A stretch of DNA of 64,000 nt. Source: an uncultured Planctomycetaceae bacterium (GTDB lineage Bacteria; Planctomycetota; Planctomycetia; Isosphaerales; Isosphaeraceae). Each line of letters starts with the position of its first letter. Position 1 is the stretch's first letter. The notes under the pieces were generated by a model. That model had not been told where the DNA came from and made no database searches. It was given only the letters and a program-made list of their open reading frames with translations. Below are positions 6,049-59,968 of this stretch, piece after piece. The stretch spans positions 352,001 to 416,000 of the forward strand of contig CAWIAD010000002.1 of the NCBI GenBank assembly GCA_963833985.1, in the 5' to 3' direction. The translations under genes and the position numbers were made by a program.

Positions 6049-6648
6049 TTAATTACTCCACTTCGTAGGCGTTTCTCCCGCGTACCCCAGTGGGTCGAGA
6101 AACCCCACATACGTCACCTGATCATTCGCATTGATCGTGAATTGCTCCGAGTAATCGGTGTCCACCGATGTTACAGCGCCATACGTGGCGGTGGACAGAT
6201 ACGGAGAAACTAGAACAGTTACGAGATAGCTGCCACCCGCCTCTGCCTGGACGTTGGTCAGGACACCACTCCAGCCATTGATGACTGAACCGGGCGGGCT
6301 GTTAACAGCCGAGTAGTAATCGAGGCGATCTTGCGGAACCGTCGTATAACTACTCAATACCAAAGCCATCTCCTCGTAGAGGTTTTGTTGGTTCTGGTTG
6401 AGATTAAGCGTCCAGAGAATCGTCACAGGCCAGGATGCAGCTTGGGTGGCGGGCTGCAATCCGCCGGCAACGGGCGCCGTGCTGGCGCCGGGCAAACCTT
6501 TCGTCACAGGACCCGAGCCGAGCGTGGACGATTTGGTCCTGGCTCCCTGCTTCGTCTTGTCTCCCTGCTGCGCGTGCACCACGGCGAGCATAGCGCCGAC
6601 GACACACACGGCTCCCAACGGAACGATCATGGCACGCTTGCTCTTCAT
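6049..6648 (-). CDS. Secreted hypothetical protein (199 aa)
   Basis: N-terminal signal peptide ending AVVHA-Q; beta-rich mature region; lower GC than the flanking housekeeping genes. Confidence 0.75.
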   Translation of the reverse strand: MKSKRAMIVPLGAVCVVGAMLAVVHAQQGDKTKQGARTKSSTLGSGPVTKGLPGASTAPVAGGLQPATQAASWPVTILWTLNLNQNQQNLYEEMALVLSSYTTVPQDRLDYYSAVNSPPGSVINGWSGVLTNVQAEAGGSYLVTVLVSPYLSTATYGAVTSVDTDYSEQFTINANDQVTYVGFLDPLGYAGETPTKWSN

Positions 6649-6663
6649 CGCGGTTTCCCCTGT

Positions 6664-7527: not shown

Positions 7528-8080
7528 GCGAGCACCTCATAGGAGGAGAGGAATGAAGAAGACTCGCCGGAAAGACTTGCTTGAAGAGCGGTCTGGTGAC
7601 CGGCATAGAAGCCAGAGGTTTCGTGCCGCATCTTGGATAGGTTAACTCGTAGAAGGCCCGTGTCGGTTTGCCACGCAGCTCTGTACGGTCACACCTCTTA
7701 CGCCCCGCGTCTTCTGACCCTTATTCTGGACCAGCGCCACAGACATCTTCTTAATTTGGTATCGAGCCGAACTGCCTCTGTCAAGGGAGTGGTCCTTTTT
7801 TTTCCATATTTACATAGGTTGTTATGCAACTTAGATAATATAAAACGTTGATATGATTGGCGCAAGACAGAGTTCACAAAGACAACGGACTGCACGTCAG
7901 CTTCTGGTTTTGGATTCGCGCATTCAGCGCGGAGGTCGCTGGGGCTCTGGCGTGGCGCGAGCGTCCCCGCACCCGAGGCTCGGCGCGCCTTTCACTTCAT
8001 TTGCCATGCACGGGCAGGAATCTCGGGAGGTGCCGCGCGTTGCCCGTCGCTACCGGACCCGCGATCCGTCAGATTCTGGA

Positions 8081-8210
8081 TGGCCCCAATGCTACAATGC
8101 TCCCCCAAATGCTCCCAATGCTCCATGGCCACCAATGCTGCCAATGCTGGCCGACGGTCAGTATGTGGGTGGCCCCAATGCTACCAATGCTCAATGCCAA
8201 TGCTCAATGC
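8081..8210. repeat. Cluster of 11 AATGC / CAATGCT direct repeats in two blocks
   Basis: Counted directly. Both blocks begin TGGCCCCAATGCTA (8081 and 8170). Confidence 0.85.
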
Positions 8211-8298
8211 GGCACGCGGCTAGAATCGGGGGCTAACTGCGTACTTGTTCGTCTCCTCGTCCAGTTCGTCTCACCAGACCCCTCGACGCGATGTCAAA

Positions 8299-9096
8299 CT
8301 AGCTCTCGTCGGAACCGAAGCCCAGTTCGCGCAGCCTTGCCGCGAGCAAATCCGCCCGTTGCCTCGCCTCTTCGGCACGTTGGTGTGCCTCTGCGGCTTG
8401 CTGGTGTGCCTGCTCTGCCCGTTGCCGTTCCTCGTCCGCCCGGCGATCGGCCGCCTCGGCGCGTTCGGCGCCGGTCGGAATGACGTTGCCTTGCTGATCG
8501 CACCACCGCAGCCATATGTTCTGGGCGTTCTCGAAGGGACCCTGCCAGAGTGTCAGGCCCAGGTTCAGGACCGGCAGCCACTCCGCCGCGCAGGGCACAT
8601 AGCTCTTGTCCCGCAGCACGAAGACACTTAAAGGTTCCTCCTGCACGATCCGGGACGGGTCGTAGATCGCGTAGTAGAGGATGCCAACCTGGGCGTACTT
8701 GAGCATCTTGTCTGTCGTTTCGCCCCCCTCGTTGTTGGAGACGATCTCGATGACGGCCTCGGGCGCCTTGCCAAACTCCCAGAGAAAGTACGAGCGGTTT
8801 TTCTTGAGTCTCAGATCCGCGGCTGCTTCGACGTCAAGGCTGAGCAGTGCATCGGGAACCAGTGGGGGCTGGCGGACGGCGTAAAAGAGGCCGACATTGG
8901 CCAGGGCCAGGAAGTGCCGGCCCGGTTTCCAGGAACTGTAGAGCGGCTCGGTCAGCAGGCGCTGCTGCTTCTCGGAGTAAATATTGTCCACAGGGGTGTC
9001 GTCCTCTGTGACCAGCTCGTCGACACAGGGAATCAGCTCCGGCGGCAACTCCGCCGCGACGGGTTGAGCAGTACCGGGCGCATTCACAGCAGCCAT
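8299..9096 (-). CDS. Uma2 family (DUF820) endonuclease with C-terminal coiled coil
   Basis: TEDDTPVDN, VPD..L, WEFGKAPEAVIEIVS, YY.IYDP, WLRWCD, followed by ERAE-type repeats ending LRELG. Confidence 0.92.
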   Translation of the reverse strand: MAAVNAPGTAQPVAAELPPELIPCVDELVTEDDTPVDNIYSEKQQRLLTEPLYSSWKPGRHFLALANVGLFYAVRQPPLVPDALLSLDVEAAADLRLKKNRSYFLWEFGKAPEAVIEIVSNNEGGETTDKMLKYAQVGILYYAIYDPSRIVQEEPLSVFVLRDKSYVPCAAEWLPVLNLGLTLWQGPFENAQNIWLRWCDQQGNVIPTGAERAEAADRRADEERQRAEQAHQQAAEAHQRAEEARQRADLLAARLRELGFGSDES

Positions 9097-23326: not shown

Positions 23327-23773
23327 TCACTGGGTGAGAATCTCGTCGAGGAGGGTAATTGGCAGACCTTCGATTGTGTGGAAGCCCCTGTCATTGGTGA
23401 TCAGGAGCGAAACACCCTGGACCTGGGCCGTTGCCGCGTGCAAAGCATCGGGCGTTCGAAGGCCAAGGTTGGATCCCCGTAGACGAGCTGCGGCCCTCAA
23501 AACCGCCGGAGTCATTGCAATCATCCGGATGCCAGGAAACTGGAGAAACTCCTCGTAATCGGCCTCCAGTTTCGTATCGCCCCGCCTGATTGGGCCGACC
23601 AGCACTTCCATCAAGGTCAATTCACTCGTGACGACATGAACTGCTCCAGCAGACACCGCGGCCCAGAGTGGCTTGAGCAGAGGAGAATAAACTGGATGTT
23701 GCTCCACAGTATAAATGCAGACCTGGGTATCAACGTAAACCGGCCCGGTCGCTGGTAGGATCAACGATCCCAT
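23327..23773 (-). CDS. PIN-domain toxin (VapC-like)
   Basis: VYVDTQ, SELTLMEVL, LRTPDALHAATA, ITND (acidic tetrad). Confidence 0.9.
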   Translation of the reverse strand: MGSLILPATGPVYVDTQVCIYTVEQHPVYSPLLKPLWAAVSAGAVHVVTSELTLMEVLVGPIRRGDTKLEADYEEFLQFPGIRMIAMTPAVLRAAARLRGSNLGLRTPDALHAATAQVQGVSLLITNDRGFHTIEGLPITLLDEILTQ

Positions 23774-24030
23774 GCGTCGCGTTCCTCCTGGAACCGACGT
23801 TCGACCTCTTCCCAGCTCGGCGCACTGCGCGGCCCATGCGGCAGCCGGTCGAGGAATTCGAGCAGCGACCGACGCGTGGCTGGCTCGGCCCGATGCGGGA
23901 CAACGATGACATCAACTTGCTGCCCTTCCCGGAACTCCGGCACGCTGATCTCGATACGACGCCCCGCCTGGACTTCAGCCGTCACGCGAAGTGCGTCGCG
24001 CAAATCGCCGCTGGTCACATCCACGCTCAT
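23761..24030 (-). CDS. Probable antitoxin (89 aa) for the PIN toxin
   Basis: Small ORF overlapping the toxin start, with a beta-rich N-terminus (GRRIEISVPEFREGQQVDVIV) and ending EERDAWDR. Confidence 0.75.
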   Translation of the reverse strand: MSVDVTSGDLRDALRVTAEVQAGRRIEISVPEFREGQQVDVIVVPHRAEPATRRSLLEFLDRLPHGPRSAPSWEEVERRFQEERDAWDR

Positions 24031-24263
24031 TCCCCTGATACGGACCTGAAAGAAATAGTCTCGCATATTGGCCCCCGGGAATCCATTCGGGATTGCGTCG
24101 AGTGCAGCGGATGACGCACCAGCGAGATTCCACCGCGGATGGACTCGGATTTCCACTTTTTCCCGATGCTCGACCCTCCTCCGGAATTATTCTCGCGCGA
24201 TGGAGACTCTCCACGCTCGGATCACGCTGTGTGGGGAAAACATCTTTACCCGGAGGCCCGCAC

Positions 24264-29753: not shown

Positions 29754-32691
29754 TCAGACGGAGATGTTCGGGACCGCCATCCGTTCACGCCGGGCGGGCT
29801 GGGAGTGCCTGGGGGCAAGAACCTCGCGTGATCGGCGCAGCAGCCAGTGGCCGCAAGGGACGAGCAGAGGACGGACCAGCAAGGCATCAACGGTGATGCC
29901 AACCACCAGGGCAAACCCGAGTTGCCGCAACGAGGCTCAGAGGGCTCGAGAGAAAGGACGCGAAGCTGCATGCCGTGATCGCCGCGGCCGAACTGATCAG
30001 GCCGCCCGTCCCGCCGATCGCGCGAACGATTCCGCCCCGGAAGCCGTGACGATGCGTCTCTTCCTGGAGCCGGGTCATGAGGAAGACGTTGTAATCGACT
30101 CCGACGGCGACGAGCAACACGAAGAGAAAGTAAGGAACTTTCCAGTCCAGGCCCTCTGCGCCCAGGGCGGTCACGAAGAGGAGGTGCGTCGCCCCCAGGG
30201 CAAACGCGTAGGTCAGCACCATGGTGGCGACGAGGTTGAAGCACGACCAGGGATCACGCAGGGCGACCAGCAGGACGAGGAACACGCCGATGGGCACGAC
30301 GAACCAGCTTTGCACCTGGTCGGAGTAGGTGAGCGCGCGGATGTCGGCCTGCTCCGCGTTGGCACCAGCGATCGAGGCGGTGACATGTAGTCCCTCGTAC
30401 TCGCTCAGATATTCTTTGAGCCGCCTTCGTAATGTCTCTACCTGATCCATCGACGGGTCGGAGAAGACCCGGTTCGACTGGGTCAAATCGATGCGCGCCT
30501 GCCGGCCGTCGGGCGTGATGTAGACATCGAAGCTCTTCAGCAGCTCGGGGTTGTCGCGCACCGTTTCCGGCGTGATCAGCAAACGATCCAGAACGCGCTG
30601 GCCGACCGGATCGTTGAGAATCGCCGTGACCTCGTGGTGAGCGCGCTCTGCACCCCTGGCAATTTGCTCGGCGCCGTCGGCAGCGCGCGTCAGCTCGGCA
30701 AGCAGGGTTTCGGCCGGAACTGCTGGCCGTGTGAGCGCAGGGGCTGTTCCGGCGGCCGCGTGTGTTCGCTCATGCTCCGCGCCGGACCGACGGGTCGGAG
30801 CTGCCGGCGGGAGCCGCGGAGCGGGCACCCGGAATCGAACCGGTGTTTTCGCCGGCACCGGCCACCAGGGTGAATGCCTTGCCCAGCCCGGCGAGATCCC
30901 ATGGAGGAACGCCCTGGGTGAGTGAAAGCGCCGCGGATGCGCCCCTGAGGCCGGAAGCAAGCGCGGAGGCCGGCGCAACGGACGGACTTGCGGGAGTTGC
31001 TTGCGGGGCCTTTTCCGGAGCGTCGTGACCTGCGGTCTTCGCCGGCCTGCCACGTCCGGCTGTGCCCGTCAGGTTCATGCCGGTCTGCTGCTCCAGCCAG
31101 ACGACGGCGCGGAGCTTCGCCGAACCTTCGATCAGTCCCTGGTTGAGTTGCCTGGCTCCATCGGCAAGCTGGCGAAAGCCATGGTTCACCTCGCCCAGCC
31201 GCGATACCAGCCTGGCGCGATTCAGGAGCTCGGGACTGCCCAGCGGCTGGGTTGCCGAACGGACCTCGGCCAGGCGCCGCTGGTGCGAGAGCAGCCGGCT
31301 CACGTCGTCGATGAGCGTCAGACCCTCGGACCGCCGCAGGTCCGTGTCCGATTCCAGCACGATGGTCAGCGGAGCGGCCATTCCGGAGCCGAACTTCGAG
31401 GCCATCAGCAGCAGGTTCTCGCCTGACTTCGTGTGCCGGGGAAGTTCGGCCAGCAGATCCATCGTGAAGTGGCTGCGCAATCCCAGCGCGGCCAGGGGCA
31501 GCAGCGCCACCAACGTGAACGCCCAGCTGCGCAGGGGCGCGCCATGGCCGCTTGCCCCAGCTTGAACCAGAAGCCGCCCGATGGCTGGGAGAACCGGTCG
31601 AACGAACCGGGACGCCAGCGCGCCAGCAGCACCAGCAGTGAAGGCGTGAGGGTGAGCGTCGCCAGCAGGGAGAGGGCCAGGCCCAGGGCCACGCTCGGTC
31701 CGGTGGTCGAGAAGAGCTTGAATCGGGTCGTGCCCATGAGCGCAAGACCGATGATGATCGTCCCGGCGCTTGTCACCAGCGGCATGAACGAGCGGCTCAG
31801 CGTCTGCCTCATCACGCCCGCCGGGTTTTCGGCATTGAAGTGCTCGGCGAACCTCCAGGAAAGGAAGAGGCAGAAGTCGGTCCCGGTACCGAAGAGGAGT
31901 GCGACGAGGAAAAGCTCGACCAGCGGCGAGAGTTCCCAGCCCGCCTTGCTCAACCACGCCAGCAGCCCACGCGCGATGATCAGGCTGATGCCAATCGTCG
32001 CCAGCGGAACCATGGCCAGCAGGAACGACCGGTAGACCAGCAGCAGGACAATCAGGAGCAACGCCACGGTTGCAACGGCTGCGCGGTCGAGGGAGACCTG
32101 GACCTGGGCCATGTAATCGCGGCCGATCACCGCGTCGCCGGTCCAGCGTAGCTCCAGGCCAGAGACCCCCGGAGTCTGACCCAGGAGCCTTTCCGCCTGC
32201 GATTGCAGCCAGGCAATCGCGCAATGCGCAGTGGGCGAGACGTGCGAGGAATCCAGCGGCAGCACCAGCAGGCTGAGCGTGCCGTCCCGGCTGACCAGAC
32301 GCTCGGCAACCTCGGCGGGAGACTGGGGCCCCAGCACCCGAAGCAGGTCCGCTGGTCGATCCTGCGCGCTCAACCGCCGGCTCAGGCGGACCGCGAACTC
32401 CCGGTCGGCATCGGTCAAACCGGCCGGCCGGTACAGCTCAAGAACCGCCGCCGACTCGTACGACTGGTCTGGCCAGGCGCGCCGGATCATTTCCGCCGCG
32501 CGGCGGCTTTCGGACTCCTCGCCCAGCAGCTTGGACTGGCCCTCCGCGGCCAGCCGTGTCAGGTTCGGAGAACCCGCCCCGACGGCGAGCGCAAGAAGGA
32601 TCCAGAAAATGGCGACCCATGCCGGTCGACGGCTCAGGATATCGAGGGCTTTGTCCGGCCACATGGATAGGGCTCCTGCTTCCGTCATCAC
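29754..32691 (-). CDS. MMPL/RND-family transporter (at least three apparent frameshifts)
   Basis: GTGTDFCLFL..RFAE, TSAGTIIIGL, AVGVDYNVFLMTRLQEE, GGLISSAAAI, spread across ORFs 31405-32691, 30770-32224 and 29887-31053. Confidence 0.88.
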
Positions 32692-34955: not shown

Positions 34956-36299
34956 TCAGTCGTGCCGGGCCGGCAGCGGCGCGGACGCGTTCGCGGGATG
35001 GTAGCTGTTGCAGAAGTCGATCCGTTCACCAATGCTGGGGTGGGAACCACGGAAGACCTTGTAGATCAGCCCCGGGCGGGGGTTACTCAGGTTTTCGTGC
35101 TGGAGCTTGACGAAAGCCGTCGCGGCCGAGTGATTGGCGTGCGTCAGGTCGAGTGCGAAGCGGTCGGCCGCATGCTCCTGGAAGCGGCTGTAGGCCATGG
35201 CCACGGGGGACAGGAACAGGCTGGACACCTCGATCAAGAGCAGAATCAGCGGCACCGCCGCAATGTCCGACAGGCTCTGGAACCGCAGCCGGTGGGCGTA
35301 CCGGGCGATCAGCCAGCGGCCCAGGCGATCGACCACGAACAACCCGGTGAGCGTCAGGAGCGACGAGAGCAGGATCGACCACACCACGTGGCCCATCACG
35401 TAATGCCCCATCTCGTGGCCCATGACCGCGAGGACTTCTTTCTCGTCCAGCCGGTCCAGCAGCGTATCCCAGAGGACGATCCGCTTGGTCCCCAGCACAC
35501 CCGTCACGTAAGCGTTGACCATCCTGGTATCGGCGCTCTTGTCCACTTCGAAGACCCGGCTCCCTTCGATGCCGGCCCTCTGGGCCAGTTCCAGTATCGA
35601 CTGCTCGAGTGCCTGGTTCTTCATCGGCCCGAACTTGTTGAACAGCGGATCGATCCAGATCGGCATCACCAGCACGGTCGAGAACAGGAAGGGTACCGAC
35701 AAGAGCGCTGAGTACAGCCACCAACGCCGCGGCGATCGAGAGAGCAGCAGCAACGGGACCCAGGCGAAGGCGAAGCCCGCCAGCATCTCCACGCCCAGGT
35801 GGAGAACCGATTTCGTGAACCACCGGCCCGGGCTCTGGTTCGAGAGACCGTAAGCGTGCTGGCGCACGAACCCCGCGTAATAGTTCAGGGGCAGGTCAAT
35901 CAGGAAGACGAGCCCCAGGTAGAGCACGACGTACAACCCCACCGAGAGGAACCAGTAGCGGCCCAGCCTGTGCGCCAGGTCACGGAGAGTGGCGGAGAAG
36001 CCAGAGAAGGCCATCGCGGCAGGCACCAGCATGCTCCAGCAGACACCCAGCGCCCACAGCCACATACCGCTTCTGTAATATCGCAGGGCCAGGGGAGAAG
36101 GAGTCGGAACCTCGACGGGACGCTGTTCCATGTCCGTTCTCGCGACGAGGGTTCCAGGATCCGGCACACCGCTCTTGCTCCCTGTGTGCTGTTGAGGTTC
36201 CTCGCTCGGCTGGGCCGCCTGCATGGGAACAAGGGAACCGGCGAGCACGATGAGCAGTACCACTACCAGAGCGACTGGCGCAAGCGACTTCCGATTCAT
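34956..36299 (-). CDS. M48 family (Ste24-like) membrane zinc metallopeptidase
   Basis: NAYVTG..GTKRIVLWDTLL, HEMGH, EHAAD, SHP..GERI; signal peptide and TM helices. Confidence 0.95.
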   Translation of the reverse strand: MNRKSLAPVALVVVLLIVLAGSLVPMQAAQPSEEPQQHTGSKSGVPDPGTLVARTDMEQRPVEVPTPSPLALRYYRSGMWLWALGVCWSMLVPAAMAFSGFSATLRDLAHRLGRYWFLSVGLYVVLYLGLVFLIDLPLNYYAGFVRQHAYGLSNQSPGRWFTKSVLHLGVEMLAGFAFAWVPLLLLSRSPRRWWLYSALLSVPFLFSTVLVMPIWIDPLFNKFGPMKNQALEQSILELAQRAGIEGSRVFEVDKSADTRMVNAYVTGVLGTKRIVLWDTLLDRLDEKEVLAVMGHEMGHYVMGHVVWSILLSSLLTLTGLFVVDRLGRWLIARYAHRLRFQSLSDIAAVPLILLLIEVSSLFLSPVAMAYSRFQEHAADRFALDLTHANHSAATAFVKLQHENLSNPRPGLIYKVFRGSHPSIGERIDFCNSYHPANASAPLPARHD

Positions 36300-36357
36300 C
36301 AAGCCCTGGCCCTTTCTGACGTGGTCCTCGAGCCTTCAGGCGGGCGCGGGCCCTTGA

Positions 36358-37776
36358 TCACTCGATGATCTGGTGGGGCTCTGGCTCGCTGATCGGAGCG
36401 TTCGGCTCCGGCTCACCAAAAACGCGGAGCGAGAGATACCCCAGTGCGGCCGCAAGCGCCGCGCTCAGGGCGCCGAGTACATAGGTGGCGTAACGAAACA
36501 GATTGAGCCTGCGCAGGAACTCCGCGCCCTTCTGGCCTTCGGCGGTCTCGGCGATCTCGGTTTTCTCGGCCAGTTCTTGTTTCAGCTGCACCTGCGACTT
36601 CTGAAGGTCGTCCACCTGAAGTCGCAGCTCGTTGGTCTTCCGGGCGTCGGCCTCATTGCGCTCAGCCTGTGTCCTGACCGTGGCCAGCTCATCGGTCAGC
36701 TTGTCGTTCTTGGACACCAGCTCCTTGGTGCGCAGACCCAGAGTTTCGTTGATCGATTGCAGGGCCGATAGCTGCTTGCGGGCCTCGTCGCGGGCCTTCG
36801 CCGCACGCTCGTATCGCTCGGCGAACTGGGCGGGGTTATCGCTGCCGGCCTTCTCCAGCAAAGTATCGACGGTGAGCCGCTGAGTTCCGGCAACCTGGTC
36901 CACCGACCGCGCCAGGACCTTGAGCGACTCGCCCTGATCTTCGAGCCGGTTGTGAAGCTGGTACAGCCCGAGCACCACACCGACCCCCAGCACGCCCAGG
37001 AACGACCCCAGCATGCTGAAGAGCACAGCGGTCTGGATCTTGTCGCCTGATGGGCCGACGTACTGCGGCGTTGATTGTCGATTGAGCATCTTCAGAAGCT
37101 CCGCCTCGAGACGTGGAGAAAGAATCCCCGTTCCCGATCCCGAGCCCTGTGGGCTGGGAATGTTTTCCAGGTCATTGGCCAGCTTGGCCAGGGCCATTCG
37201 CTCGCTTCGCTCGGCAGTCAGGTAGTAACCTTCGACCTGCGCCACGTTCCCGCCCCGCCACTGGAAGAAGCCGCGGGTCTGCTGGATGGGATCGACGACG
37301 TAGGCCACTTGCAGCTTCTGGGCGAAGAAATGTTGATGAATGAAGACATCGTGGTGCGACAGGAAGATCCCGAAGCTGGGATGCGTGTGGTACCAGCCGA
37401 CGATGTCGAGGTCGGGAAACAGCCGATCGCGCTCGCGAGTGATCTCTTCCCAGGAGTCGTGGGTGTAGGTGAAGCTGGCCTGAGTGTTGGCGTAGTGCTT
37501 GGCCTCGAGGCTTTGTGAGATCCACACAAAGGGCGTGCCCGCCGTCTCGTCCAAGCATTCCTTGCCCAGCAAGATGCCGCCGAGCTCGACCGAGGTATCC
37601 GCCAGCGCGTGCCGCTCGATGGCGTCGGCCGCGTGGTAGTCCAGGAAGATGGGCAGGTCGTCGGCGGCGGGCACCTGATAGGACAGGCAGGCGAAGCGGC
37701 GGTCGCGGTCGGGTCGGAGTAGCCGCACCGGCTCGCGGTACCGGATCTCGTCGAAGACCATCTCATCGCCGCTCAC
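36358..37776 (-). CDS. JAB/JAMM (MPN+) isopeptidase with two TM helices flanking a coiled coil
   Basis: ELGGILLG...VGWYHTHPSFGIFLSHHD (E..HxHx7Sx2D). TM1 VLFSMLGSFLGVLGVGVVLGLY, TM2 YVLGALSAALAAALGYLSL. GTG start overlaps the E1 stop (GTGA). Confidence 0.92.
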   Translation of the reverse strand: MSGDEMVFDEIRYREPVRLLRPDRDRRFACLSYQVPAADDLPIFLDYHAADAIERHALADTSVELGGILLGKECLDETAGTPFVWISQSLEAKHYANTQASFTYTHDSWEEITRERDRLFPDLDIVGWYHTHPSFGIFLSHHDVFIHQHFFAQKLQVAYVVDPIQQTRGFFQWRGGNVAQVEGYYLTAERSERMALAKLANDLENIPSPQGSGSGTGILSPRLEAELLKMLNRQSTPQYVGPSGDKIQTAVLFSMLGSFLGVLGVGVVLGLYQLHNRLEDQGESLKVLARSVDQVAGTQRLTVDTLLEKAGSDNPAQFAERYERAAKARDEARKQLSALQSINETLGLRTKELVSKNDKLTDELATVRTQAERNEADARKTNELRLQVDDLQKSQVQLKQELAEKTEIAETAEGQKGAEFLRRLNLFRYATYVLGALSAALAAALGYLSLRVFGEPEPNAPISEPEPHQIIE

Positions 37777-39101
37777 CGGCCCATCCCCCAGCCGCGCGGG
37801 CGGCCGTCCCGGTCGCCAGCCAGAAGGAAGAAACGGCTTGCTCCGGCACCGTCCACGCGGAGGATATCGTACGCGGGCACGCCAAGGTCCGCCAGCGTGC
37901 GGCCGGCCAGCGGGGAAGTCTCCTGCACGGTGCTGATCAGCTCGGGACGGCCCGTTTCGCGGCAGTTCGGGCATGCGGCCTCGGCTTGCCGAACGCTGGT
38001 GCGCGGCCGCATGATCTCCTGCCGCCCGTCGCATCGCGGGCAATGCACGGAGGTCACCAGCTCACGATCGAGAACCAGGGCGAGTGGTCCTTCCAGCTCG
38101 TCCCGCGCCGCGGCCAGCAGTGCGGCGCAGGTGCTCTGGTGGCCGAGCGGCAGCTCGACCGGGCGGGGATAGGTCTCGTGGCTCAGGCAATCCTCGCGAA
38201 ACGGAAGCTGCGTCGTATAAAACTGATTGCCCACGCCATTGAACACCATCGCCGAACCGGCCGCCACCGGCATCCCATGCAGCAGCTTGAGCGCTTCTTG
38301 AACTTGCAGCGCCGCCATCATCGACGCGATCGTCGGCGCCGTGGGGACCTTGCCCGCCAGGATCTCGTCTCGCTTCAGCAGCGGACAGCTATAACGCAGG
38401 TTCAGAAGCTGGTAATCGCGCTGGGTCATGGCGCACTCGTAGCAGGCCGAATCCGGCGGCACGAAGACCTTCACCACGCCCTGGATCTCCTGGATGCCCG
38501 CGTCGATCCAGGGCGTGCCGGTCTTCCAGCACTGACGGTTGACCCAGAGCCGGGCCTCGCGGTTGTCCAGGCAGCCGATCACCAGGTCGACATCAGCGAA
38601 CAGACCCAGGCCCAGATCGGTGATGACGTCCCCGTGCATCGGCACGATGGTGATGTCCGGATTGAGCTCGCAGGCCCGCCGCGCCGCGGCCTTGGCCTTC
38701 GACTGGCCGGCGTCGTCGGCTCGGAAGAGCACCGAGCGCGACAGGTTCGAGGGCTCGATGACGTCCAGATCGATCAGGTAGGTGGTCCCCACGCCCACCA
38801 GTGCCAGGTTCTTCAAAACCTCGTTGCCCAGCGCGCCGGCTCCGACGACCAGCACCCTGGCGGCAGCCAGCCGGTCTTGCCGCCACCAGGAAATGAGACG
38901 GAGGCGGCCGTAGCGATCTTCATCGTCAATTCGCAGCAGCGCCGGATCGCCGTTCTCACCTTCCGGCGGAACGGCAGACGCGGCCGCCGGGCTCGCGCCG
39001 GGCTCCCGCGCATCGCCGGGTCCTGCCTGTGCCTGACCGCGAATCGATAGGGATGGTTGATCCATCGGACTTGGTTCCCGCCCTGACCCGCGGATCGCCA
39101 T
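37773..39101 (-). CDS. E1-like ubiquitin-activating enzyme (ThiF/MoeB family) with C-terminal zinc ribbon and probable ubiquitin-fold domain
   Basis: DRYGR, VVGAGALGNE, D.IEPSNLSR, CLDNREAR, CYEC, YSC (candidate catalytic Cys), CPRC/CPNC, TLADLGV. ATG overlaps the E2 stop (TAATG). Confidence 0.92.
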   Translation of the reverse strand: MAIRGSGREPSPMDQPSLSIRGQAQAGPGDAREPGASPAAASAVPPEGENGDPALLRIDDEDRYGRLRLISWWRQDRLAAARVLVVGAGALGNEVLKNLALVGVGTTYLIDLDVIEPSNLSRSVLFRADDAGQSKAKAAARRACELNPDITIVPMHGDVITDLGLGLFADVDLVIGCLDNREARLWVNRQCWKTGTPWIDAGIQEIQGVVKVFVPPDSACYECAMTQRDYQLLNLRYSCPLLKRDEILAGKVPTAPTIASMMAALQVQEALKLLHGMPVAAGSAMVFNGVGNQFYTTQLPFREDCLSHETYPRPVELPLGHQSTCAALLAAARDELEGPLALVLDRELVTSVHCPRCDGRQEIMRPRTSVRQAEAACPNCRETGRPELISTVQETSPLAGRTLADLGVPAYDILRVDGAGASRFFLLAGDRDGRPRGWGMGR

Positions 39102-40093
39102 TATTCCAGGAACATAATCTCGTCGTTGCTCTCGAGCGGCCGGGACGGGCGAGGCGGGATCTCATCATCCGTATCGAGGACGATCACATCGTCTGTGATC
39201 GTCTCGACGGGCCGGGCGTTGCGTGGACCCGCGCTGTCCGTGAGACATCGGCCTTCACCGTTCGGGGCGGGAATGGGCAAGCTCGCGGACGCGGTCTGGC
39301 ACGGCGACACGGACACCGCGCTGACGGTTGAGCCTGCCGGGTGGATCGCCGTGACAAGACCGGGGGGCCCGGGAGCCAGCACAGTCGTCGTCGTGACCAG
39401 TTCCGGCTGGCCGGTGATCCCGTCGCCGATCGCCCTGGCGTACCGCTCCATGAACTGGCGCACGCGTCCCACCGGAGAGAGGCTCTCCAGGCCTGAGCCG
39501 GAACCGTTTCGGGCGGCGTGGCCGGCACGCGAGGGCTGCCTTGTCGCGCCGGCCGAGGACCCCCTCGTGCTGCCGTTGACGTCGCTCTCCGCGGCTTCAA
39601 TCCGCCCCTGGGCCGCACGCAGGTCGCGCAATGGCCGGGCGTCGGTGGGGAAGAGGATTGCCGTCTGGTTGGCGACCCAGAGCGCGGCTTCCCGGTTGTA
39701 CGGGCTGCGGATGTCGTAGTTGAAATAGCGGGTCATGTCCCAGAGCATCACGCAGAGCTCGTCTAGCTGGACGCTGGGCACCCAGTGCGTGCCGTAACCG
39801 CCCAGACAGACCATGCCGATCTCCGAGATATTGGGATGGTACACCGGAGTCAGCCAGCGCAGCTCTGGAATGGTCCGGGGATAGGATGCACCAAGCTTGA
39901 TCTCCACGCGGTGGTAAAGGACGAGCTTGACCTTGCCGCGATCACGGCATAACCCCTTACCCTTGTAGGTGACAAGATAGTACGTGGGCGGATTGCCCGT
40001 AGCCTGAAAATCAAAGACCGAACTTTCCGACCGCAGCCTTTCAAGGGCCGTCAGGTCGTTTCTCAGGCGCCGCATGCGTGGGGAGTCGTGCAT
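39101..40093 (-). CDS. E2 ubiquitin-conjugating (UBC-fold) enzyme with long low-complexity tail
   Basis: RRLRNDL...YPRTIPELRWLTPVYHPNISEIGMVCLG...WVPS...SPYNREAA; HPN motif with the catalytic Cys codon at 39806-39808. Start could be 40144. Confidence 0.9.
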   Translation of the reverse strand: MHDSPRMRRLRNDLTALERLRSESSVFDFQATGNPPTYYLVTYKGKGLCRDRGKVKLVLYHRVEIKLGASYPRTIPELRWLTPVYHPNISEIGMVCLGGYGTHWVPSVQLDELCVMLWDMTRYFNYDIRSPYNREAALWVANQTAILFPTDARPLRDLRAAQGRIEAAESDVNGSTRGSSAGATRQPSRAGHAARNGSGSGLESLSPVGRVRQFMERYARAIGDGITGQPELVTTTTVLAPGPPGLVTAIHPAGSTVSAVSVSPCQTASASLPIPAPNGEGRCLTDSAGPRNARPVETITDDVIVLDTDDEIPPRPSRPLESNDEIMFLE

Positions 40094-40261
40094 CGTCTCG
40101 CGGCCACCCGCGGCAAGCGCGGAGCCGACCTCTTGGAGGTACATCGTCTGGCGAAAAGGGAGCTCTGGGGAGGCTGCGGCCGAGGCAGTGAAAACTGTTC
40201 GGGCGAGGCCACAACACCGGGCACCGGGGAATGTCCCGTGCGCCGGTGAACCCCGCCCCGC

Positions 40262-40555
40262 TCAGCCCGCGACCACCTCGGGATAGACGATCAGGTGATC
40301 GCCATTCTGAATTCCAGCCTCAACGAGTGTCCAGTTTTCGAGCAGCCGCCGTCCCCCTTCTTTATGATCCAGCGCGTAGCTCATGGGCTGACCGTCCGGG
40401 CTGGTCGCCGGCAAGTTCATCTTGGTGATGATGTTGGGGATGATCCGGCTAACGGGAACGGTGAAGGCGATAACCGCCTTGACCGACTTGGACCCGGTCT
40501 GATCCAGAAAGGTGACCTGGATCCCGTTGGGATCGGCATTTCCGCCGTATGACAT
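40262..40555 (-). CDS. Ubiquitin-like (beta-grasp, YukD/EsaB-like) protein ending in Gly
   Basis: GGAGGAGG RBS; 97 aa; IQVTFLDQTG...RRLLENWTLVEAGIQNGDHLIVYPEVVAG*. First gene of the E2-E1-JAB run. Confidence 0.85.
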   Translation of the reverse strand: MSYGGNADPNGIQVTFLDQTGSKSVKAVIAFTVPVSRIIPNIITKMNLPATSPDGQPMSYALDHKEGGRRLLENWTLVEAGIQNGDHLIVYPEVVAG

Positions 40556-40825
40556 GATCAGGATACCTCCTCCACATCCCTATTCGGACGCTCCTCGCCG
40601 ATATTGGGTCGCACCCGACGGTTTCTTCCCGATCTTCCCCGCGGCCGGGCAGCCCGTCTTGGCATTGCCCTTCCACCAGGATAACCGCTGACGCGCGCGG
40701 CGAGAACAGCCCGCAGCGCAAATTCCAGGTGAAGTCCCGGTAATCGACTCTTGCGCGTCCCTCTCTCAGCTTATACGCGAGATGAGTTCCATCCTTTCAC
40801 GGGAATCTCATCGGGTCTCGCATTC

Positions 40826-42013
40826 TCAGCGGCCGGAGGCGTCCACTTCGATGCTGTTTCCTGCGACCCGGACGACCCTGGCCCAGGTGATCTGGTCCGC
40901 GAAGCGCTGCACATCGACCGAGCCCTCGAAGCCTATCCGATACATGGACAACGGACCGCCAGAGCCGGAGTTCGAGAGCTGATACCCGCTGGAAACGCGC
41001 CTGATCAGCTCCGTCAGCCTGTCCGCGAACTGCCTGGCGGCCTCCCGGTTGCTCAGACCGGAGACCATCACAACAATCGAGTACGCCATGACCGGCTGCT
41101 GGACGCCCGGCGGCGGTGCGGGCGATTGCGCCGGCGGGGGTTCGAAGCCCGAGGGCGGACCAGGGGCTGGTCGCAGAAAACCCGGCGGCACTTCGGCAGG
41201 ATCGCCGGCACCCGAGAACCCAGCCGGGAGGGCCCCGTCCTGCCGATCGATGTTGTGCCTCATCGCATTGAGTCCTGGCAGCGCGATGGCCATGACGATC
41301 ACCACACCGAAGGACGCGATGTAGCTCAGGAAGGGGCCCTTCATGGCATCCCATTCCCTGATCGTGTACCCAAGGATGTAGAAGGGGCAAAACCAGCAGA
41401 GCAGCCCGGTCAAGAGACCGTCGCTGAAGGGCACGATGATGACCCCGGCTGCCCCGTAGAGAAAGAGCACCAGGAACGACAGCACCCCACCGCCAAAGAA
41501 GAGGTACGCCCCGGCAGCCGGGCTGATGAGGGTGAGCAGAAAACCCAGGGCGAGCACGGCGAGTACACCGAAGTAGACAAACCCCGGCAGACCATCGAAT
41601 AAGGAGCCCCGGTCGCGACTTGCCCAGGAGCTTCCCTTGCTCTTTTGCCCCGGTGAGCTTGCCGGGGCCCGGCGGGGGAGCACCGGCGCATCGTATTCAT
41701 TGTCGACTGACGGAAGCGCGGGGGCGGCAACCGGGCCGACCGGCACGTCGTTCAGGCCGTACGGGTCGTCCACGGCTGAATCTGGGATGGATGGCGAGGG
41801 CAAGGAAGGACGCCGTTCCGCGGCCCCACGAGTCTTCCCCGACGAACTCGCTGAGGCGGCCACCGGCGCCGCCCCCCGCGGCGGACGGACGGTCGATGGC
41901 GTCGGGATGACGAAAACGTGACCGCACCCGCTGCACCGGGCCTTCTTGCCCGAAAGAATGCTGTCTTTCTGAAACTTCTTTCCGCAACTGGAGCACGAAA
42001 ACACGATCTGCAT
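40826..42013 (-). CDS. Zinc-ribbon plus multi-TM membrane protein of unknown function
   Basis: CSSCGKKF...CSGCGHVF, Pro-rich linker, about four TM segments, Pro-rich linker, small C-terminal domain. Confidence 0.8.
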   Translation of the reverse strand: MQIVFSCSSCGKKFQKDSILSGKKARCSGCGHVFVIPTPSTVRPPRGAAPVAASASSSGKTRGAAERRPSLPSPSIPDSAVDDPYGLNDVPVGPVAAPALPSVDNEYDAPVLPRRAPASSPGQKSKGSSWASRDRGSLFDGLPGFVYFGVLAVLALGFLLTLISPAAGAYLFFGGGVLSFLVLFLYGAAGVIIVPFSDGLLTGLLCWFCPFYILGYTIREWDAMKGPFLSYIASFGVVIVMAIALPGLNAMRHNIDRQDGALPAGFSGAGDPAEVPPGFLRPAPGPPSGFEPPPAQSPAPPPGVQQPVMAYSIVVMVSGLSNREAARQFADRLTELIRRVSSGYQLSNSGSGGPLSMYRIGFEGSVDVQRFADQITWARVVRVAGNSIEVDASGR

Positions 42014-44418: not shown

Positions 44419-47400
44419 GTGGGCGAGATGGATGCAATCCCGGCCGACTGGTGTGAGCAGGCGCAGGAGCTTCTGGCGGCCGCCGAACGAGGCCAGGGCA
44501 AGCCGCTGACCGATCTACTAGACCAGCTCGCAGAGGGCATCCGCCTGCGGCGTGCTCTCGATCAGCGAGCGCCCGAAGCCCCCACAGAGACCGCGCCGAG
44601 CCATCCAGAGGCGGCTCTTCGAGCTGCGACGGGCCATCGCCGCTGAGATTTCCAGTCGCGAGGTCGAGCCGGACGAGCGTTCGGAGCTCTCTGGTCGAGT
44701 GAAGGCGTGGTTGGCCGAGGCGCGGATCACGCTCCGGAACCTGGTGAGCGACCATGCGCTGGACGCGCTGGCTCGAGCGCTTGCGATCGACGGTTTGCGG
44801 ACCGACCTGGAATGGCTCGGTATGCTGGTAACCTGGCTTGACCGGGAAACGCCTCCGGGCCGGATGGCGGCGCTGGATGTTGAGCTGGAACGGATTCGCA
44901 ACGGCCTGGCCGTCTGGCCTGAGCCGCAACGGAAGCCCGACGACCGCCGCGAGGCCCTGCTGCGGCGTTGCGATCGTTTGCGGGGTGTGCTGCTGGAGCG
45001 GCGGATCCGTTCCGAACTGGAGAGACCGGCTGCCGGCGAAACCCCCGAGCAACTGCTCGGCCAGCGTCTCGAGTTTTCCCGGCTGCAAGCGCGGGTGCTG
45101 GCTCTTGAGGAGCCAGACGATGAAGCACGCCCGAAATGGCTGGGCGGCGACCCCGAGCAATGGGCCGACGCGCTCTCGGTGCGGCGGATCGAGCTGTCCG
45201 TCCGGGCCGCGAGCCAGCTCGAGGCGATGAGCCTGGCCGAAGCCCGTCGCCACTGCGAGCGAGCCGCCCAGCGCGCACGCGACGAGGTCAGTGAGATGAT
45301 CGCGTTCGTGCAGGACATGCCCCTGCGCCGGGCCGTGAGCCGGCTGGAGCTGGCGCGGCAGGATCTCCAGCAACTCGCGGTCATCCTTCGCCGCCGTGCG
45401 GGTTCACCGCGCTCCGAGAGCGGCCAGGACGACGAGGACCCGAACGTCCCCGGCGGGGCGCGGCGTGCCGCTTCGCCGCACGATTCAGGCGAAGCTGAGA
45501 TTGCTCGCCAGCGGATTCGCCACCAGGCCCTCGAGCTCAAGAAGGCGGACCGCAGGGTGCGCGGCGAATGGCAAGAGCGGCTACTGGCATTCCGGCTGGC
45601 AAGCGTGCTGGGGACGCGCGTCGCGAGGTTGATCGAGACGGCCGTGCTCTGGCTCATTCTCTTGCTGGTCGGCCTGATCACCGCGGAATGGCTGCTCGAT
45701 CGCGCCGGATTGCTTCTGGACAGCCATCGCCGCTGGCTGGCCTGGGCGGATCTTGCCGTCTGCTCGGCCCTCCTCCTGGAATTTGCCCTCCGGCTGGCTC
45801 TTGCCCCGCGCAAGGGGGTCTACCTGCTGCGCCATTTCGTCCTCGATGTCCTCGCCTCACTTCCGTTCGGCTTCCTTGCCTACCAGTCCGCCGTGGCCGA
45901 GCTGGGGACGGCACCCGGAACGGACGCAACGTTTCTCTGGTTCCTCAAGGCCCTGCAAGTCGGCCGGCTCGTGCAACTGGTACGGTTTCTCCGCCTCACG
46001 CTTCCGGTCCTCAGGCTCGCGCGGCTGGTCCTTTTTTTCCTCAGGCTCGGCGACCGTCTCGTGAGCAAGTACGCGGGGCTATTGAACCGCAACATCATCC
46101 TCTTCGAGCCCTATCACGCACAGCGGCCGGAATCGAGCGATCGGCACCGCCTGGCGGCCCTGCGCGGCGAGCAGGAGCATGCGGCCTGGGCCCTGGCGGC
46201 ACGACTGGACGCCGGCCAGCGCGCGCAGCTTGCCGCCCGAGCCCTGGCCGATCTGGACATCCGCATCGAGACCCAGCCGTTCGAGGTCCCTGGCAGCGAG
46301 GGTGCGGAGCACGAGCCGGGTGAGGGCGTGGGCCGCGACGTTCCCGTGGAGGCGCTCGTCGATCGGCTGATCCAGCTCAGCCCGGAGGGACTCGTCGAGC
46401 AGATGGGACCGGCGTTCGTCACCTCGGCCGATCGTTACCTGCGGCTGCTGGACGTGCCGCTTGTGCGGCGCATGCGGGTGATCCGCAACCTTGTGGCATA
46501 TCGCCAGAAGAGCCCGGCGGAAGCCGTCGCCCTGGCCGCTAACTACGTCGGCCATCTGCTCCAGCGCATCCTTGACGTCGTCTACTTTCTGGCCGACCTG
46601 GAGGGAACGCTGTCGCCGCCGGTCTTCCTTGACCGCCTGGGAGCGACGATCGAGAGCGCGACCCGCACGCCAGCCAGGCGTTTACTCTGGATGGGGTCAG
46701 CCTTCCTGTCACTCTTCGTCGTGGTCAATAGCGTGGGTTTCCTGAAGCCCTTTCGGGGCTTTGTCGACCGGCTTCAAGACTTGCTCGGCTGGCCGGTGAT
46801 CGTCCTGGGTGGTTTCTGCCTGATCTTCTGGCTGCTCGGCTCATGGTTCCGGAAGATCGCCAACCAGTCGGCCGACCATTGTGAGCGGGTGGTCGAGGCG
46901 CAGTTCGCCGCCCAGACCAAGAACCTGAAGTCCCGCCGTCGCGATCAGGACGCGCGGTTCCTGGCCGAACGCGTCATCGATCCGGAACTGTTGCTGAGAT
47001 CGTCCGATAACTCGTTACCGGACCTCTATCGTGGTCATAGCGAGGCCGGGCCCGAATCCACGGGCCGTCTGCTCTTCGAGAACCGCGAGCTGATCTTTCT
47101 GAGGAACATTCGCCTGCTCTATCAGGATTACCTCGACGGCTCGCCCTTTCACCGCAGCGACACCAGGGCCTCGGTGCAACTGCTGGGCAACCTGGCGCTG
47201 GCCAACTTGCGGCGCAGCCACCTGGGCCACCTGCTGCGCGAGGGACGCGCCCTGGACCGCCTTGATCTCAGCCGCGCCGGGCGACTCTTCGGCGGGCCCT
47301 ACCTCTGGTTCAACTACATCACCCGCATGATTGTCCAGGAGACGGCGATCCTGCTCCTGGATTACAACCAGCACGCGATCCCCCTGGACCGCCTGGCCTG

Positions 47401-48882
47401 CTCGCCGCCGGAGACCCGGCACAGCTTCGCCTGCTGGCTGGCGCGGCGCTTGCGGATCGATCCGGGCGAGGTTGTCCTCCCCGAACTGGCCGTCCCCGGG
47501 GCTGAAGACGCGGCTTCATCGGCCGAATGCCATGCGCGTTCCCGGCGCGCCGAGGCGGACGACTTCCTCGAAACCGTGGAGTTCACCGCGATGGACTTCC
47601 TGGCCGACGACCCCCAGCGCGACGCGGGGATTGCGGCCCGCTTTGGCCTCCAGCTCGCCGAGCTCGTACGCAGGGACCGGCAGCAAAATGTCCGTCGCGC
47701 ATTCCGCAGCTTCCCGCTCCATGAGCTCCCCCTGGCGCAGCGAACGATCAACCTCTACGCCTTCTATGAGGCATACCTGTCGCACGGCAGGATCGTCTTC
47801 TTCCCGTTTCTTGTCGCGGGCGCCGCGGGACAGGCCGTCCTGACCGCCTACCGCGCGGTGCGGCGCGGCGTGCGCGAGATCCTTCATCCCAGCGTCGACC
47901 AGGATGACGACGTGCCCGCGGATACGTACTGGGCGGCGCTGCGCAAGATCCACCGCATGCGCAAGCCCGTGTTCATGGGCACGCTCTGGCTCCGCGCCGA
48001 TTCGACCCCGAATATCTCGGCCTGCCTCTGCCCACCGCGCCGCCCGGAATCGCCGCGCATTCACTGATGGAGAGCGACCTCGATTTCATCGGCGCCTCAC
48101 GGCAGGACCGCATCATCGCCGAGCAGATCCGCACCGGCCACCAGCGCCGGCTACGCTGGATCGGTCGCTGGCTCCAGCAGTTCGGCTGGACCTTCGACAC
48201 CCTGCCCGGATACCTCGCCCGCGAGATCCCCTACCTTGCCAACCGGGGCGGAGAAGGCCTTCGCGCCCTGGTGACGGCCTGCGTGCTCGACCACGACGAC
48301 ATCACCAGCCTGGCCTTCTCCATCGAGGGCCTGAAGCGCGTGCTGGCCCACGGTGCCGACGCCGCGCTGGACGGGCAGGCGCTGCCGCCCGGCTTGCCCG
48401 ACCCGGTGGTGAACCTGCGCAAGCTCTGGCATCCTGTGCCGGCGCGGCGCCGCCCGCTGAGCGACCTCTTCCGGCTGGCTTGCTTTCCCGCTTACGGTCC
48501 GCAGCAGCAGGCTCGCATTCTTGCCTATCTGCACCGTCACCGCCGTGCGGTGCGCGGCTGGATTCACGTCATCCTGGGCCAGGCCGGCGACGATCCCTGG
48601 ACCACCGTGCAGAGCCGCATGCGCGAGGTGCTCTTGCGAACGGACCTCTGGAGCGACCAGGTGCTCGTCTTGAGAGCGGTGCAGACGCTGACCATGCTCG
48701 ATGTCCAGCACAATTGCGACCTGGTCTGGAGCCTGGGCGGGTATACGCTGCCGGCCTCCGATGCGGCCGCGGCCAGCGGATCTTTCACCAGGGAGCCGGC
48801 CGAGGAGAGGCAGGTCCCGGAGCGCGATTTCCCGAGAACGGTTGCCGCCGGGAACACGCCGGCAGCAGCCGGAGTGCAGTGA
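44419..48882 (+). CDS. Very large membrane protein with an Ion_trans S1-S4-like segment (apparent frameshifts near 44550 and 48000)
   Basis: ORFs 44335-44646, 44552-48067 and 48067-48882 join up. TM block LIETAVLWLI...DLAVCSALLLEFALR...DVLASLP...GRLVQLVRFLRL..VLRLARL. Confidence 0.7.
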
Positions 48883-59494: not shown

Positions 59495-59968
59495 ATGGCC
59501 CGCAAGTTCACCGCCAGCAAGACCCACCTTCGTCCCGACCCGAGGTACGGCTCGAAGCTGGCCGGCAAGTTCATCAACTGCGTGATGCACAACGGCAAGA
59601 AGAGCGTGGCCCAGCGCATCTTCTACGATGCGATGGAGCTGATCCACAAGCGGCTGCCCAATGAAGAGCCGGTCGATGTGTTCACTCGCGCCGTCGAGAA
59701 CGTCAAGCCGATCATCGAGGTCCGCTCCAAGCGCGTCGGCGGGGCCACCTACCAGGTTCCCATGCAGGTGAACAAGACACGGCAGCAGACCCTGTCGATC
59801 CGCTGGTTGCTCATGGCGGCCCGCGAGAAAAAGGGCCGGCCCATGGCCGTGAAACTGGCGGACGAGCTGATCGCCGCGTACAACCGCGAAGGTGCCGCGA
59901 TCACTCGCCGTGAAAACGTGCACCGCATGGCCGACGCCAACAAGGCGTTCGCCCATTTCGCGTGGTGA
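59495..59968 (+). CDS. rpsG: 30S ribosomal protein S7
   Basis: [39 protein letters not shown]. Confidence 0.99.

Follow-up and report, generated by a model that had tools for sequence, protein, structure and literature searches.

A resident ubiquitin-type kit with a candidate membrane RING ligase in the Isosphaeraceae

Here we focus on a stretch of 64,000 nucleotides (hereafter the window; contig CAWIAD010000002.1, positions 352,001 to 416,000, assembly GCA_963833985.1) from an uncultured planctomycete of the family Isosphaeraceae. On its minus strand, within 36358..40555, four open reading frames (ORFs) code for a ubiquitin-like protein (Ubl), a conjugating enzyme (E2), an activating enzyme (E1) and a JAMM peptidase of the JAB family. 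A fifth gene of the same unit, coding for a membrane RING protein, lies apart from them in this genome. We read these five genes, by computational analysis, as a resident ubiquitin-type conjugation cycle at the cytoplasmic face of the membrane, and put the probability of this reading as a whole at roughly 0.55.

In such a cycle, the JAMM would trim the tail of one to three residues that follows the conserved glycine of the Ubl in most orthologues, a step not needed in the source genome. The E1 would adenylate this glycine, form a thioester on C239 and recruit the E2 via a UFD-like domain, and the E2 would then accept the Ubl on C113. The membrane RING protein, acting as ligase (E3), would bind the E2 by its C4HC3 finger, with a domain resembling DUF3137, TtfA and CCDC47 presenting membrane-proximal targets, and the membrane-tethered JAMM would take the tag off again. 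Motifs resembling SUMO-interacting motifs (SIMs) on the E1, E2 and JAMM would hold the Ubl non-covalently. Thioester conjugation by the E1 and E2 is highly probable, and the chances of a housekeeping role at the membrane are about even. The most likely role would be to regulate membrane proteins of the cell itself reversibly, or to control their quality, and we favour this role over defence; the envelope function that was originally suggested for the pathway is likewise something we infer.

Catalytic components of the operon

The original prediction had described four co-oriented genes with the motifs of a ubiquitin-like pathway, and sequence and ORF reading bear this out, down to the TAATG overlap of E2 and E1 (39099-39103) and the GTGA overlap of E1 and JAMM (37773-37776). 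Profile searches placed all four proteins above the curated Pfam cut-offs, as YukD (E-value 2.9e-14), UQ_con (3.6e-11), ThiF (3.7e-57) and JAB (1.7e-9). The genes follow the order Ubl-E2-E1-JAB as four separate ORFs. Related loci were taken as the best 80 of 329 Ubl relatives in a scan of species genomes (84-100% identical; titled Isosphaeraceae or Planctomycetota), with neighbour counts based on tblastn. E2, E1 and JAB all lie downstream of the Ubl in 57 of the 62 loci with at least 5.5 kb of downstream DNA, and the grouping is therefore not a matter of chance. In six of the related loci (L048, L057, L067, L070, L076 and L079), genes for Uma2-type endonucleases stand between E1 and JAB; the operon thus tolerates insertions.

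The E2 is the only UQ_con match in the source genome, and its best matches in the PDB are eukaryotic E2s such as Ubc13 (E-values of 3e-9 to 7e-8). Judging from its orthologues, it probably starts at the second methionine (40093). C113, P104 and N105 are invariant in all 64 aligned sequences. The E1 consists of one adenylation domain (residues about 59-312) and a C-terminal domain, with G87-G92, R122, K135, D179, C220, C223, C239, C305 and H308 invariant in 63/63 sequences; from known E1 and MoeB anatomy, C239 is presumably the thioester residue. A stand-alone E1 and a stand-alone, UBC-type E2, as first proposed, are thus found in separate ORFs, both with their catalytic cysteines kept. In a sequence search, UBA7 and UBA1 rank above ThiF among the solved relatives of the E1. 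In its structural model (predicted local distance difference test, pLDDT, 88), the adenylation domain is best matched by MoeB, with a Z-score of 32.4 and a root-mean-square deviation (rmsd) of 1.9 over 230 aligned residues. UBA3 (2nvu_B; Z 29.9, rmsd 7.9, 309 aligned) and UBA1 (9mc4_A; Z 27.4, rmsd 6.1, 310 aligned) match residues 58-430, and among the rows listed these two alone align out to residue 430. This suggests that the C-terminal domain is UFD-like; a sequence search with that domain alone returned only Zn-ribbon likenesses and named no UFD. In two distant loci the E1 is found at the C-terminus of very long ORFs beside Ser/Thr kinases (L130:10107-13247, 1047 aa; L129:4206-9140, 1645 aa), which are either fusions or wrong start calls.

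The Ubl family profile finds its best single-domain PDB matches in 6fj7, 2mqj and 6fnn (E-value about 0.002), and by such profile searches the protein is a beta-grasp with a conserved terminal glycine. G97 is kept in 78/79 close and 19/20 distant orthologues, and the conserved Ala-Gly end is likely to be the conjugation end. A Ubl made without any tail had been put forward as a trait of this variant, a view that the orthologues do not support: among 79 close ones only 12 stop at the glycine, 66 carry a tail (of two residues in 45) and one lacks the motif, and 5/20 distant ones stop there. The two orthologues identical to the Ubl over its 97 residues carry a two-residue tail. The bare glycine end is therefore incidental. 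The Ubl is under purifying selection (crude median pN/pS, the ratio of nonsynonymous to synonymous polymorphism, 0.09 in 77 loci). In viral contigs, a scan that needs exact short patterns gave 33 matches, none of which was confirmed as a viral copy of the Ubl. A second, divergent Ubl (37-46% identical) occurs in 26 of the 121 family genomes and is absent from the source genome; the two regions examined (L154, G301:C1:3654000-3673000; L155, G346:C36:257000-276000) each have an E1 and a JAB of their own.

A different role for this small protein would be that of a sulfur carrier of the ThiS/MoaD/CysO type, activated by a ThiF protein and trimmed by a JAB peptidase. In fold, the adenylation domain is indeed matched best by ThiF and MoeB, and trimming by JAB also occurs in sulfur-carrier systems. 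Nevertheless, an E2 with an invariant cysteine lies behind the Ubl in all 62 evaluable loci, which favours protein conjugation over sulfur transfer, as was originally argued. The Ubl matches YukD and ubiquitin rather than ThiS or MoaD, all NCBIfam scores for ThiF and MoeB equivalogs fall below their cut-offs, and the genome holds separate ThiF-like paralogues. ThiS, MoaD and CysO systems have a carrier ending in Gly-Gly, linked enzymes for sulfur insertion and no E2; the locus has an Ala-Gly end and an E2, and the scanned proteins of the window include none for sulfur transfer, in keeping with the earlier statement. We consider a sulfur carrier very improbable.

More improbable still is that the protein is a YukD/EsaB subunit of type VII secretion which is not conjugated at all. 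The Pfam match and the database name ('EsaB/YukD family protein') speak for it, and, in the available text of PMC1779556, Bacillus subtilis YukD is described as not conjugated. The same text ties YukD to the export of ESAT-6 and not to an E1 or E2. The Ubl discussed here is fixed beside E2, E1 and JAB and has a conserved glycine with a variable tail, and its annotated neighbours include neither an ESAT-6 nor an FtsK gene.

The JAMM is built of a catalytic domain, a membrane helix, a long helical region, a second hydrophobic helix and a short tail. Its best PDB matches are Rpn11, and the pattern HxHx7Sx2D, read by eye, is present in all 78 orthologues listed. At least one hydrophobic helix is predicted in 58/58 close and 10/20 distant JAMMs, so the membrane tether of the original prediction is upheld. 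The positive-inside rule gives no topology, the mean numbers of Lys and Arg around the two helices being 1.1, 1.6, 2.1 and 1.3. Because most Ubl orthologues carry a tail after the glycine, the JAMM is the predicted maturase throughout most of the family. That the source genome keeps it, although nothing needs trimming there, would also fit a deconjugating role. Behind the second helix, an H-x-I end motif (36361-36380, minus strand) is found in 31/44 intact orthologues, in a region that is otherwise 20% conserved.

The RING partner and the SIM-like motifs

The earlier statement that no E3 is visible holds inside the window. It does not hold for the unit, since a membrane Prok-RING_1 gene at C1:4884-5726 of the source genome (G000), the only match to this family above the cut-off there, is the orthologue of a conserved gene upstream of the Ubl in close loci. 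This gene is co-oriented with the Ubl and at most 2.5 kb upstream of it in 47 of the 74 evaluable loci, and stands apart from the operon in 27. In the source genome it adjoins a gene for a phosphopantetheinyl transferase, which also precedes the RING gene in 15/80 loci. An artefact of contig breaks is an unlikely cause of the split, as Ubl and RING are widely separated on a single contig in G301 (C1, at 1.07 Mb and 4.38 Mb) and in G389. A gene with a Zn ribbon and membrane segments at 40826-42013 (minus strand), which takes the RING's place upstream of the Ubl in the window, was rejected because it occurs in only 2/80 loci.

The RING protein begins with a hydrophobic helix followed by basic residues, a DUF3137 domain and the C4HC3 finger. 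Among its orthologues, Prok-RING_1 is found in 36/38, DUF3137 in 29/38 and the hydrophobic helix in 37/39. In the structural model (pLDDT 90), residues about 29-211, behind the membrane helix, match TtfA (6t84; Z 14.8, rmsd 3.9, 160 aligned) and a chain of the multipass translocon (7tut_4; Z 13.3, rmsd 3.8, 174 aligned), both well above the other rows. TtfA is a partner of MmpL3. The translocon chain, present in 7tut, 7tm3, 6w6l and 9i78, is not named by the search, and we take it to be CCDC47. The likeness is one of fold at 6-16% identity, and the RING protein's fold also resembles type III secretion chaperones and YbjN at Z 5.5-8. In the ESM Atlas, the middle domain scored best (0.90) in unnamed clusters, and the TtfA and DUF3137 clusters at 0.80-0.82 are leads only. 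No RING is known in either TtfA or CCDC47, and none of the papers searched mentions both proteins.

The C-terminus of the RING protein matches U-box and RING E3s at Z about 5. Co-folding of the E2 with the RING protein scored 0.40, against 0.00 for the best control, with runs agreeing on at least 83% of contacts and a partner pLDDT of at least 77. Of 157 solved complexes, 116 pass the mark used, as do 2 of 215 mismatches; at 0.60 or below, the passes comprise only 18 solved complexes and both mismatches. A pass at the 0.40 level is more often wrong than right unless the pair is likely beforehand; RING and E2 are a textbook pair, well represented among solved structures. We regard the co-folding as weak support, and the RING protein as probably the cognate E3. 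In another family (f72), two genomes with one Ubl match each (G292 and G114) have 8 and 6 scattered Prok-RING_1 matches, respectively, possibly a eukaryote-like expansion of E3s around one E1 and E2.

A SIM consists of a hydrophobic core with acidic flanks and binds strand beta-2 of a beta-grasp. Acidic-hydrophobic motifs of this kind are present on the E2, E1 and JAMM (Table 1). The E2 tail is variable, yet it keeps an acidic-hydrophobic hexamer, mostly at its extreme end; the strict end motif arises in 0.4% of shuffled tails, and 2/5540 ORFs of the genome end likewise. The stretch of Ubl residues 21-37 has a charge of +3 in 78/79 close orthologues and of +5 in three f72 loci, which have acidic motifs as well. 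It is negative, at -3 to -6, in five distant loci that belong to three families (L125, L126 and L128-L130). Their E2 and JAMM motifs are basic, as is the core of the E1 motif in the three loci in which it is readable. An E2 motif of this kind was not seen in L127 or in another nine distant loci (L116-L124), and the sample behind this covariation is small and related. The pattern of charges resembles SIM docking on a beta-grasp strand, and the motifs on the E1, E2 and JAMM probably serve as docking sites for the Ubl.

Spread, residency and role

The Ubl is present in 106 of 121 genomes and 51 of 53 genera of the family (in one genome as the divergent paralogue only), and in 35 of 301 genomes of the phylum. 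Counted by hand, 103 of the family genomes have both Ubl and RING, 11 have neither, three have the Ubl only and four the RING only. In the phylum, the RING is found in 27/35 Ubl-positive and 7/266 Ubl-negative genomes, also by hand count and among kin that are not independent. In the cultured Singulisphaera acidiphila DSM 18658, the genes stand in a row (AGA26105, RING; AGA26104, Ubl; AGA26103, E2; AGA26101, JAB).

The limits of the unit can be read from a single genus, g277, to which eight of the 11 genomes with neither gene belong. There, the Ubl and RING are found in 0/8 genomes and the E2 and JAMM in 0/5 (five genomes are 93-98% complete), and the E1 orthologue is absent, with adenylation-domain matches of 34-37% only. 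The gene for an M48 peptidase, which follows the operon in 48/62 loci, is kept in 5/5 of the g277 genomes tested. In 10 relatives, with the order EamA, RING, Ubl, E2, E1, JAB, M48, the starts of EamA and M48 are 4.8-12.4 kb apart (4.8-5.6 kb in eight), with five genes between. In 3/4 g277 regions examined, the two matches begin about 0.5 kb apart, and EamA abuts M48 and MMPL. The absence of all five genes at an empty site bounds the unit at five genes; M48 and MMPL, both kept in g277, were rejected as members of the system.

Residency, in contrast to mobility, had been part of the original prediction and is well supported by the spread through the family with conserved neighbours, low pN/pS, host-like codon usage (GC content at third codon positions of 0.75-0.81 in the four genes, against a window median of 0.80), a plasmid search without a match and a neighbourhood made up mostly of housekeeping genes. 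Over the 80 loci, median identity to the window is 90% for the Ubl (a value inflated by the choice of loci by Ubl score), 73% for the E1 and the E2 core, 61% for M48, 59% for the RING and 55% for the JAB.

The same chemistry could serve defence, in a Bil-like system that has been domesticated and marks virion proteins at the membrane as they enter or assemble. The conjugation systems of Bil and CBASS act against phages, and RING-bearing operons have been predicted to do so, according to the available portions of PMC11601603 and bioRxiv 2023.09.26.559546. The patchy spread of the Ubl in the phylum and the second, divergent Ubl with its own partners fit such a role. Unlike typical defence islands, however, the kit has conserved neighbours and is found in 51 of 53 genera, and no integrase or transposase was seen among the window proteins scanned. 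PADLOC gave no match for the Ubl or E2 at an E-value of 0.01 and only generic matches for the JAB. Moreover, the distances of the JAMM, E1 and Ubl track those of the M48 neighbour (Spearman 0.69, 0.52 and 0.53), though the E2 does not (0.08). An antiphage role is, in our view, rather unlikely.

Several points weigh against a resident membrane cycle. Chambers et al. expect operons of this type to be antiviral, as far as the available text goes (bioRxiv 2023.09.26.559546). The co-absence in g277 is essentially one event in one genus, and loss and non-gain both fit it. Conservation of the Ubl (68-100%) falls short of that of ribosomal S10 (91-100%, a range that holds in 117/118 matches), and the Ubl is not essential, being absent from one genus and present in only 35/301 genomes of the phylum. 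Tagging for degradation would have no obvious reader, since the genome (96% complete) gave no 20S proteasome match and its single PF00227 match was read as HslV from sequence. The C4HC3 finger also resembles PHD fingers, and neither the RING fold nor the TtfA-like fold on its own shows a function. Finally, a full-length RING homologue (L163, C2:2140219-2141001) occurs in G173 (99% complete) with no Ubl or E2 match and is either an orphan or a counter-example, and G303 (92%) and G416 (81%) likewise have a RING with no Ubl or E2 match.

G173 also bears on a further alternative, in which the E2 conjugates directly, or onto a lipid amine in the manner of Atg8, and the RING protein, inherited along with the kit, serves as a membrane adaptor or chaperone instead of a ligase. 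The 27 loci with a RING apart from the operon, the weak co-folding and the fact that both flanking components are membrane-bound are compatible with it, and in Bil the E1 and E2 need no E3 for conjugation, according to the text available (bioRxiv 2023.09.26.559546). On the other hand, the five genes are absent together at the empty site, Prok-RING_1 genes lie within distant operons of the same Ubl family, and the E2 is of the canonical UBC type with an E1 that is probably UFD-like. We therefore hold an adaptor to be improbable, and keep to a RING ligase in a resident membrane cycle.

A bolder form of this cycle would be constitutive and resemble endoplasmic reticulum-associated degradation (ERAD). 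Its RING ligase, resembling a translocon chaperone, would recognise nascent or mis-assembled membrane proteins, a membrane deubiquitinase would edit the tags, and docking by the motif common to E1, E2 and deubiquitinase would be coded by charge, acidic motifs going with a basic Ubl and basic motifs with an acidic one, and would thereby confer specificity for the Ubl. We think it unlikely in this full form; if true, it would be a housekeeping, not an immune, E1-E2-E3 pathway in bacteria. The bacterial systems shown to work (CBASS, Bil and Bub) are described, in the texts available, without a RING E3, and RING-bearing operons are still predictions. The clean empty site defines the smallest complete version of the RING-bearing kit, and its near-core presence in a family with cultured strains makes E3-directed ubiquitination in bacteria, and the choice between housekeeping and defence, directly testable. 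Specific mutations for such tests are suggested by the fold of the E3 and by the docking motif common to the other enzymes.

Known systems, coordinates and neighbouring genes

Operons of a Ubl, E1, E2, RING and JAB, called tri-ligase operons, were predicted by Burroughs, Iyer and Aravind in 2011 (Pfam Prok-RING_1, PF14446), as cited in PMC4197634 and PMC7159879, whose citing passages report them as uncharacterised in Planctomycetes, Actinobacteria and Acidobacteria; PMC4197634 describes their occurrence as sporadic, with close relatives often lacking them. Planctomycete operons of this kind had thus already been predicted (also in bioRxiv 2023.09.26.559546), and the high novelty first claimed for the operon is not upheld. 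The kit belongs to this predicted kind rather than to Bil, Bub or CBASS, and is no sulfur carrier. It shares the same five components, with the RING linked in relatives though apart in the source genome, and the C4HC3 finger of prokaryotic RINGs (PMC11354881, as far as available). It differs in being near-core in one family, against the sporadic spread of the citing passages, and in having a minimal set of five genes with a single transmembrane DUF3137-RING E3, split off in the source genome, and SIM-like motifs. Distant loci of the same Ubl family hold a larger set that includes several RINGs, FHA, vWA, trypsin and DUF4190 (in a scan of 128 proteins, most from 232 called ORFs). What is new here is the minimal near-core form, the TtfA/CCDC47-like fold in the E3 and SIM-like motifs whose charge changes sign along with, and is opposite to, that of the Ubl. 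In a literature search, with most subscription papers outside its scope, neither an experiment on a RING-bearing operon from planctomycetes nor a report of such motifs came up.

The operon of Caldiarchaeum subterraneum (ubiquitin, E1, E2, the RING protein srfp and Rpn11) was reconstituted in vitro (PMC5654768), and the kit would work in a similar way. As described in the available part of that paper, its pro-Ubl is trimmed by an Rpn11-like JAMM, its stand-alone E1 has a C-terminal UBL domain, and it has a UBC E2 and a small RING E3; the JAMM discussed here is also best matched as Rpn11-like. In contrast to the Gly-Gly end of archaeal and eukaryotic ubiquitin, the Ubl ends in Ala-Gly, the finger is C4HC3 and not RING-H2, and both the E3 and the deubiquitinase are membrane-anchored.

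BilABCD also has a separate Ubl, E2, JAB and E1, and a conserved glycine with a short variable tail. According to the text available (bioRxiv 2023.09.26.559546), BilD combines an inactive with an active adenylation domain and has no UFD, BilB is of the CEHH type, the order is Ubl-E2-DUB-E1 (DUB, deubiquitinase), and there is no E3. Here, instead, a single adenylation domain is followed by a probably UFD-like tail, the E2 is of the HPN type, the order is Ubl-E2-E1-JAB, and a RING partner exists. The hidden Markov model of BilD scores only 39 bits against the E1, over 80-203. Bub (6E/DUF6527) systems and type II CBASS (Cap2/Cap3) share the E1, E2 and JAB folds. Type II CBASS is marked by a neighbouring CD-NTase and by Cap2, in which E2 and E1 are fused. 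Bub is described, in the accessible portions of PMC11601603 and PMC11601596, with Ubl-E2 and JAB-E1 or E2-E1 fusions, no catalytic cysteine and a DUF6527 gene, whereas the present proteins, unlike both systems, are unfused and keep their catalytic cysteines. No DUF6527 was found among the window proteins scanned, and no CD-NTase or cyclase among neighbours and window proteins, the genome beyond these not having been searched for CD-NTases.

The features of the locus are collected in Table 1. Scans for promoters and terminators gave nothing usable.

Table 1. Coordinates of the operon, its motifs and its downstream neighbour in the window
Feature	Position	Strand	Basis or remarks
Ubl, 97 aa, YukD-type beta-grasp	40262..40555	-	Ends ...PEVVAG-stop; basic stretch at residues 21-37
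Shine-Dalgarno-like GGAGGAGGT	40565..40573	-	9 nt before Ubl start; read from sequence
E2, UBC fold at about residues 18-182, long variable tail	39101..40144	-	UQ_con
E2 catalytic Cys113	39806..39808	-	After HPN
E2 tail internal SIM-like motif DVIVLD	39173..39190	-	Acidic-hydrophobic; sequence pattern
E2 C-terminal SIM-like motif EIMFLE	39104..39121	-	Strict motif in 64/75 close tails
E1, 442 aa, ThiF adenylation domain	37773..39101	-	Zn site C220, C223, C305, H308; C-terminal domain with Zn ribbon
E1 N-terminal SIM-like acidic motif LRIDDED	38916..38936	-	LxIDDxDRY in 45/60 close E1s; precedes E1 core
E1 Cys239, candidate thioester residue	38385..38387	-	Crossover loop
E1 C-terminal domain, about residues 312-430, probably UFD-like	37812..38168	-	Inserted Zn ribbon; structural model alignment
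JAMM/JAB peptidase, 472 aa from GTG	36358..37776	-	E64, H130, H132, S140, D143; Pfam JAB
JAMM N-terminal SIM-like acidic motif DEMVFDE	37747..37767	-	Pattern in 48/58 close JAMMs
JAMM hydrophobic helix 1, residues 251-269	36970..37026	-	Kyte-Doolittle scan
JAMM hydrophobic helix 2, residues 432-450	36427..36483	-	Over threshold in 40/58 close orthologues
M48 neighbour, Ste24-like membrane peptidase, downstream	34956..36302	-	Pfam M48 and M48_N; outside unit

Further genes of the window deserve a brief mention. The MMPL gene (29887-32691, minus strand) is in pieces in three reading frames, against an intact relative of 934 aa, and is either a pseudogene or the product of assembly indels; frameshifts are also present in many related loci from metagenome-assembled genomes. 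A PIN-domain gene with a small ORF upstream of it (23330-24156, minus strand), after the fab gene cluster, is probably a toxin-antitoxin pair. A helical protein of 1171 aa (44552-48067, plus strand) has as its sole match a weak Ion_trans hit in mid-protein (E-value 0.007), and a gene for ribosomal S7 (59495-59965, plus strand) stands apparently without ribosomal neighbours among the called ORFs. Positions 5000-8300 are low in GC (0.55-0.59) and carry short, unannotated ORFs.

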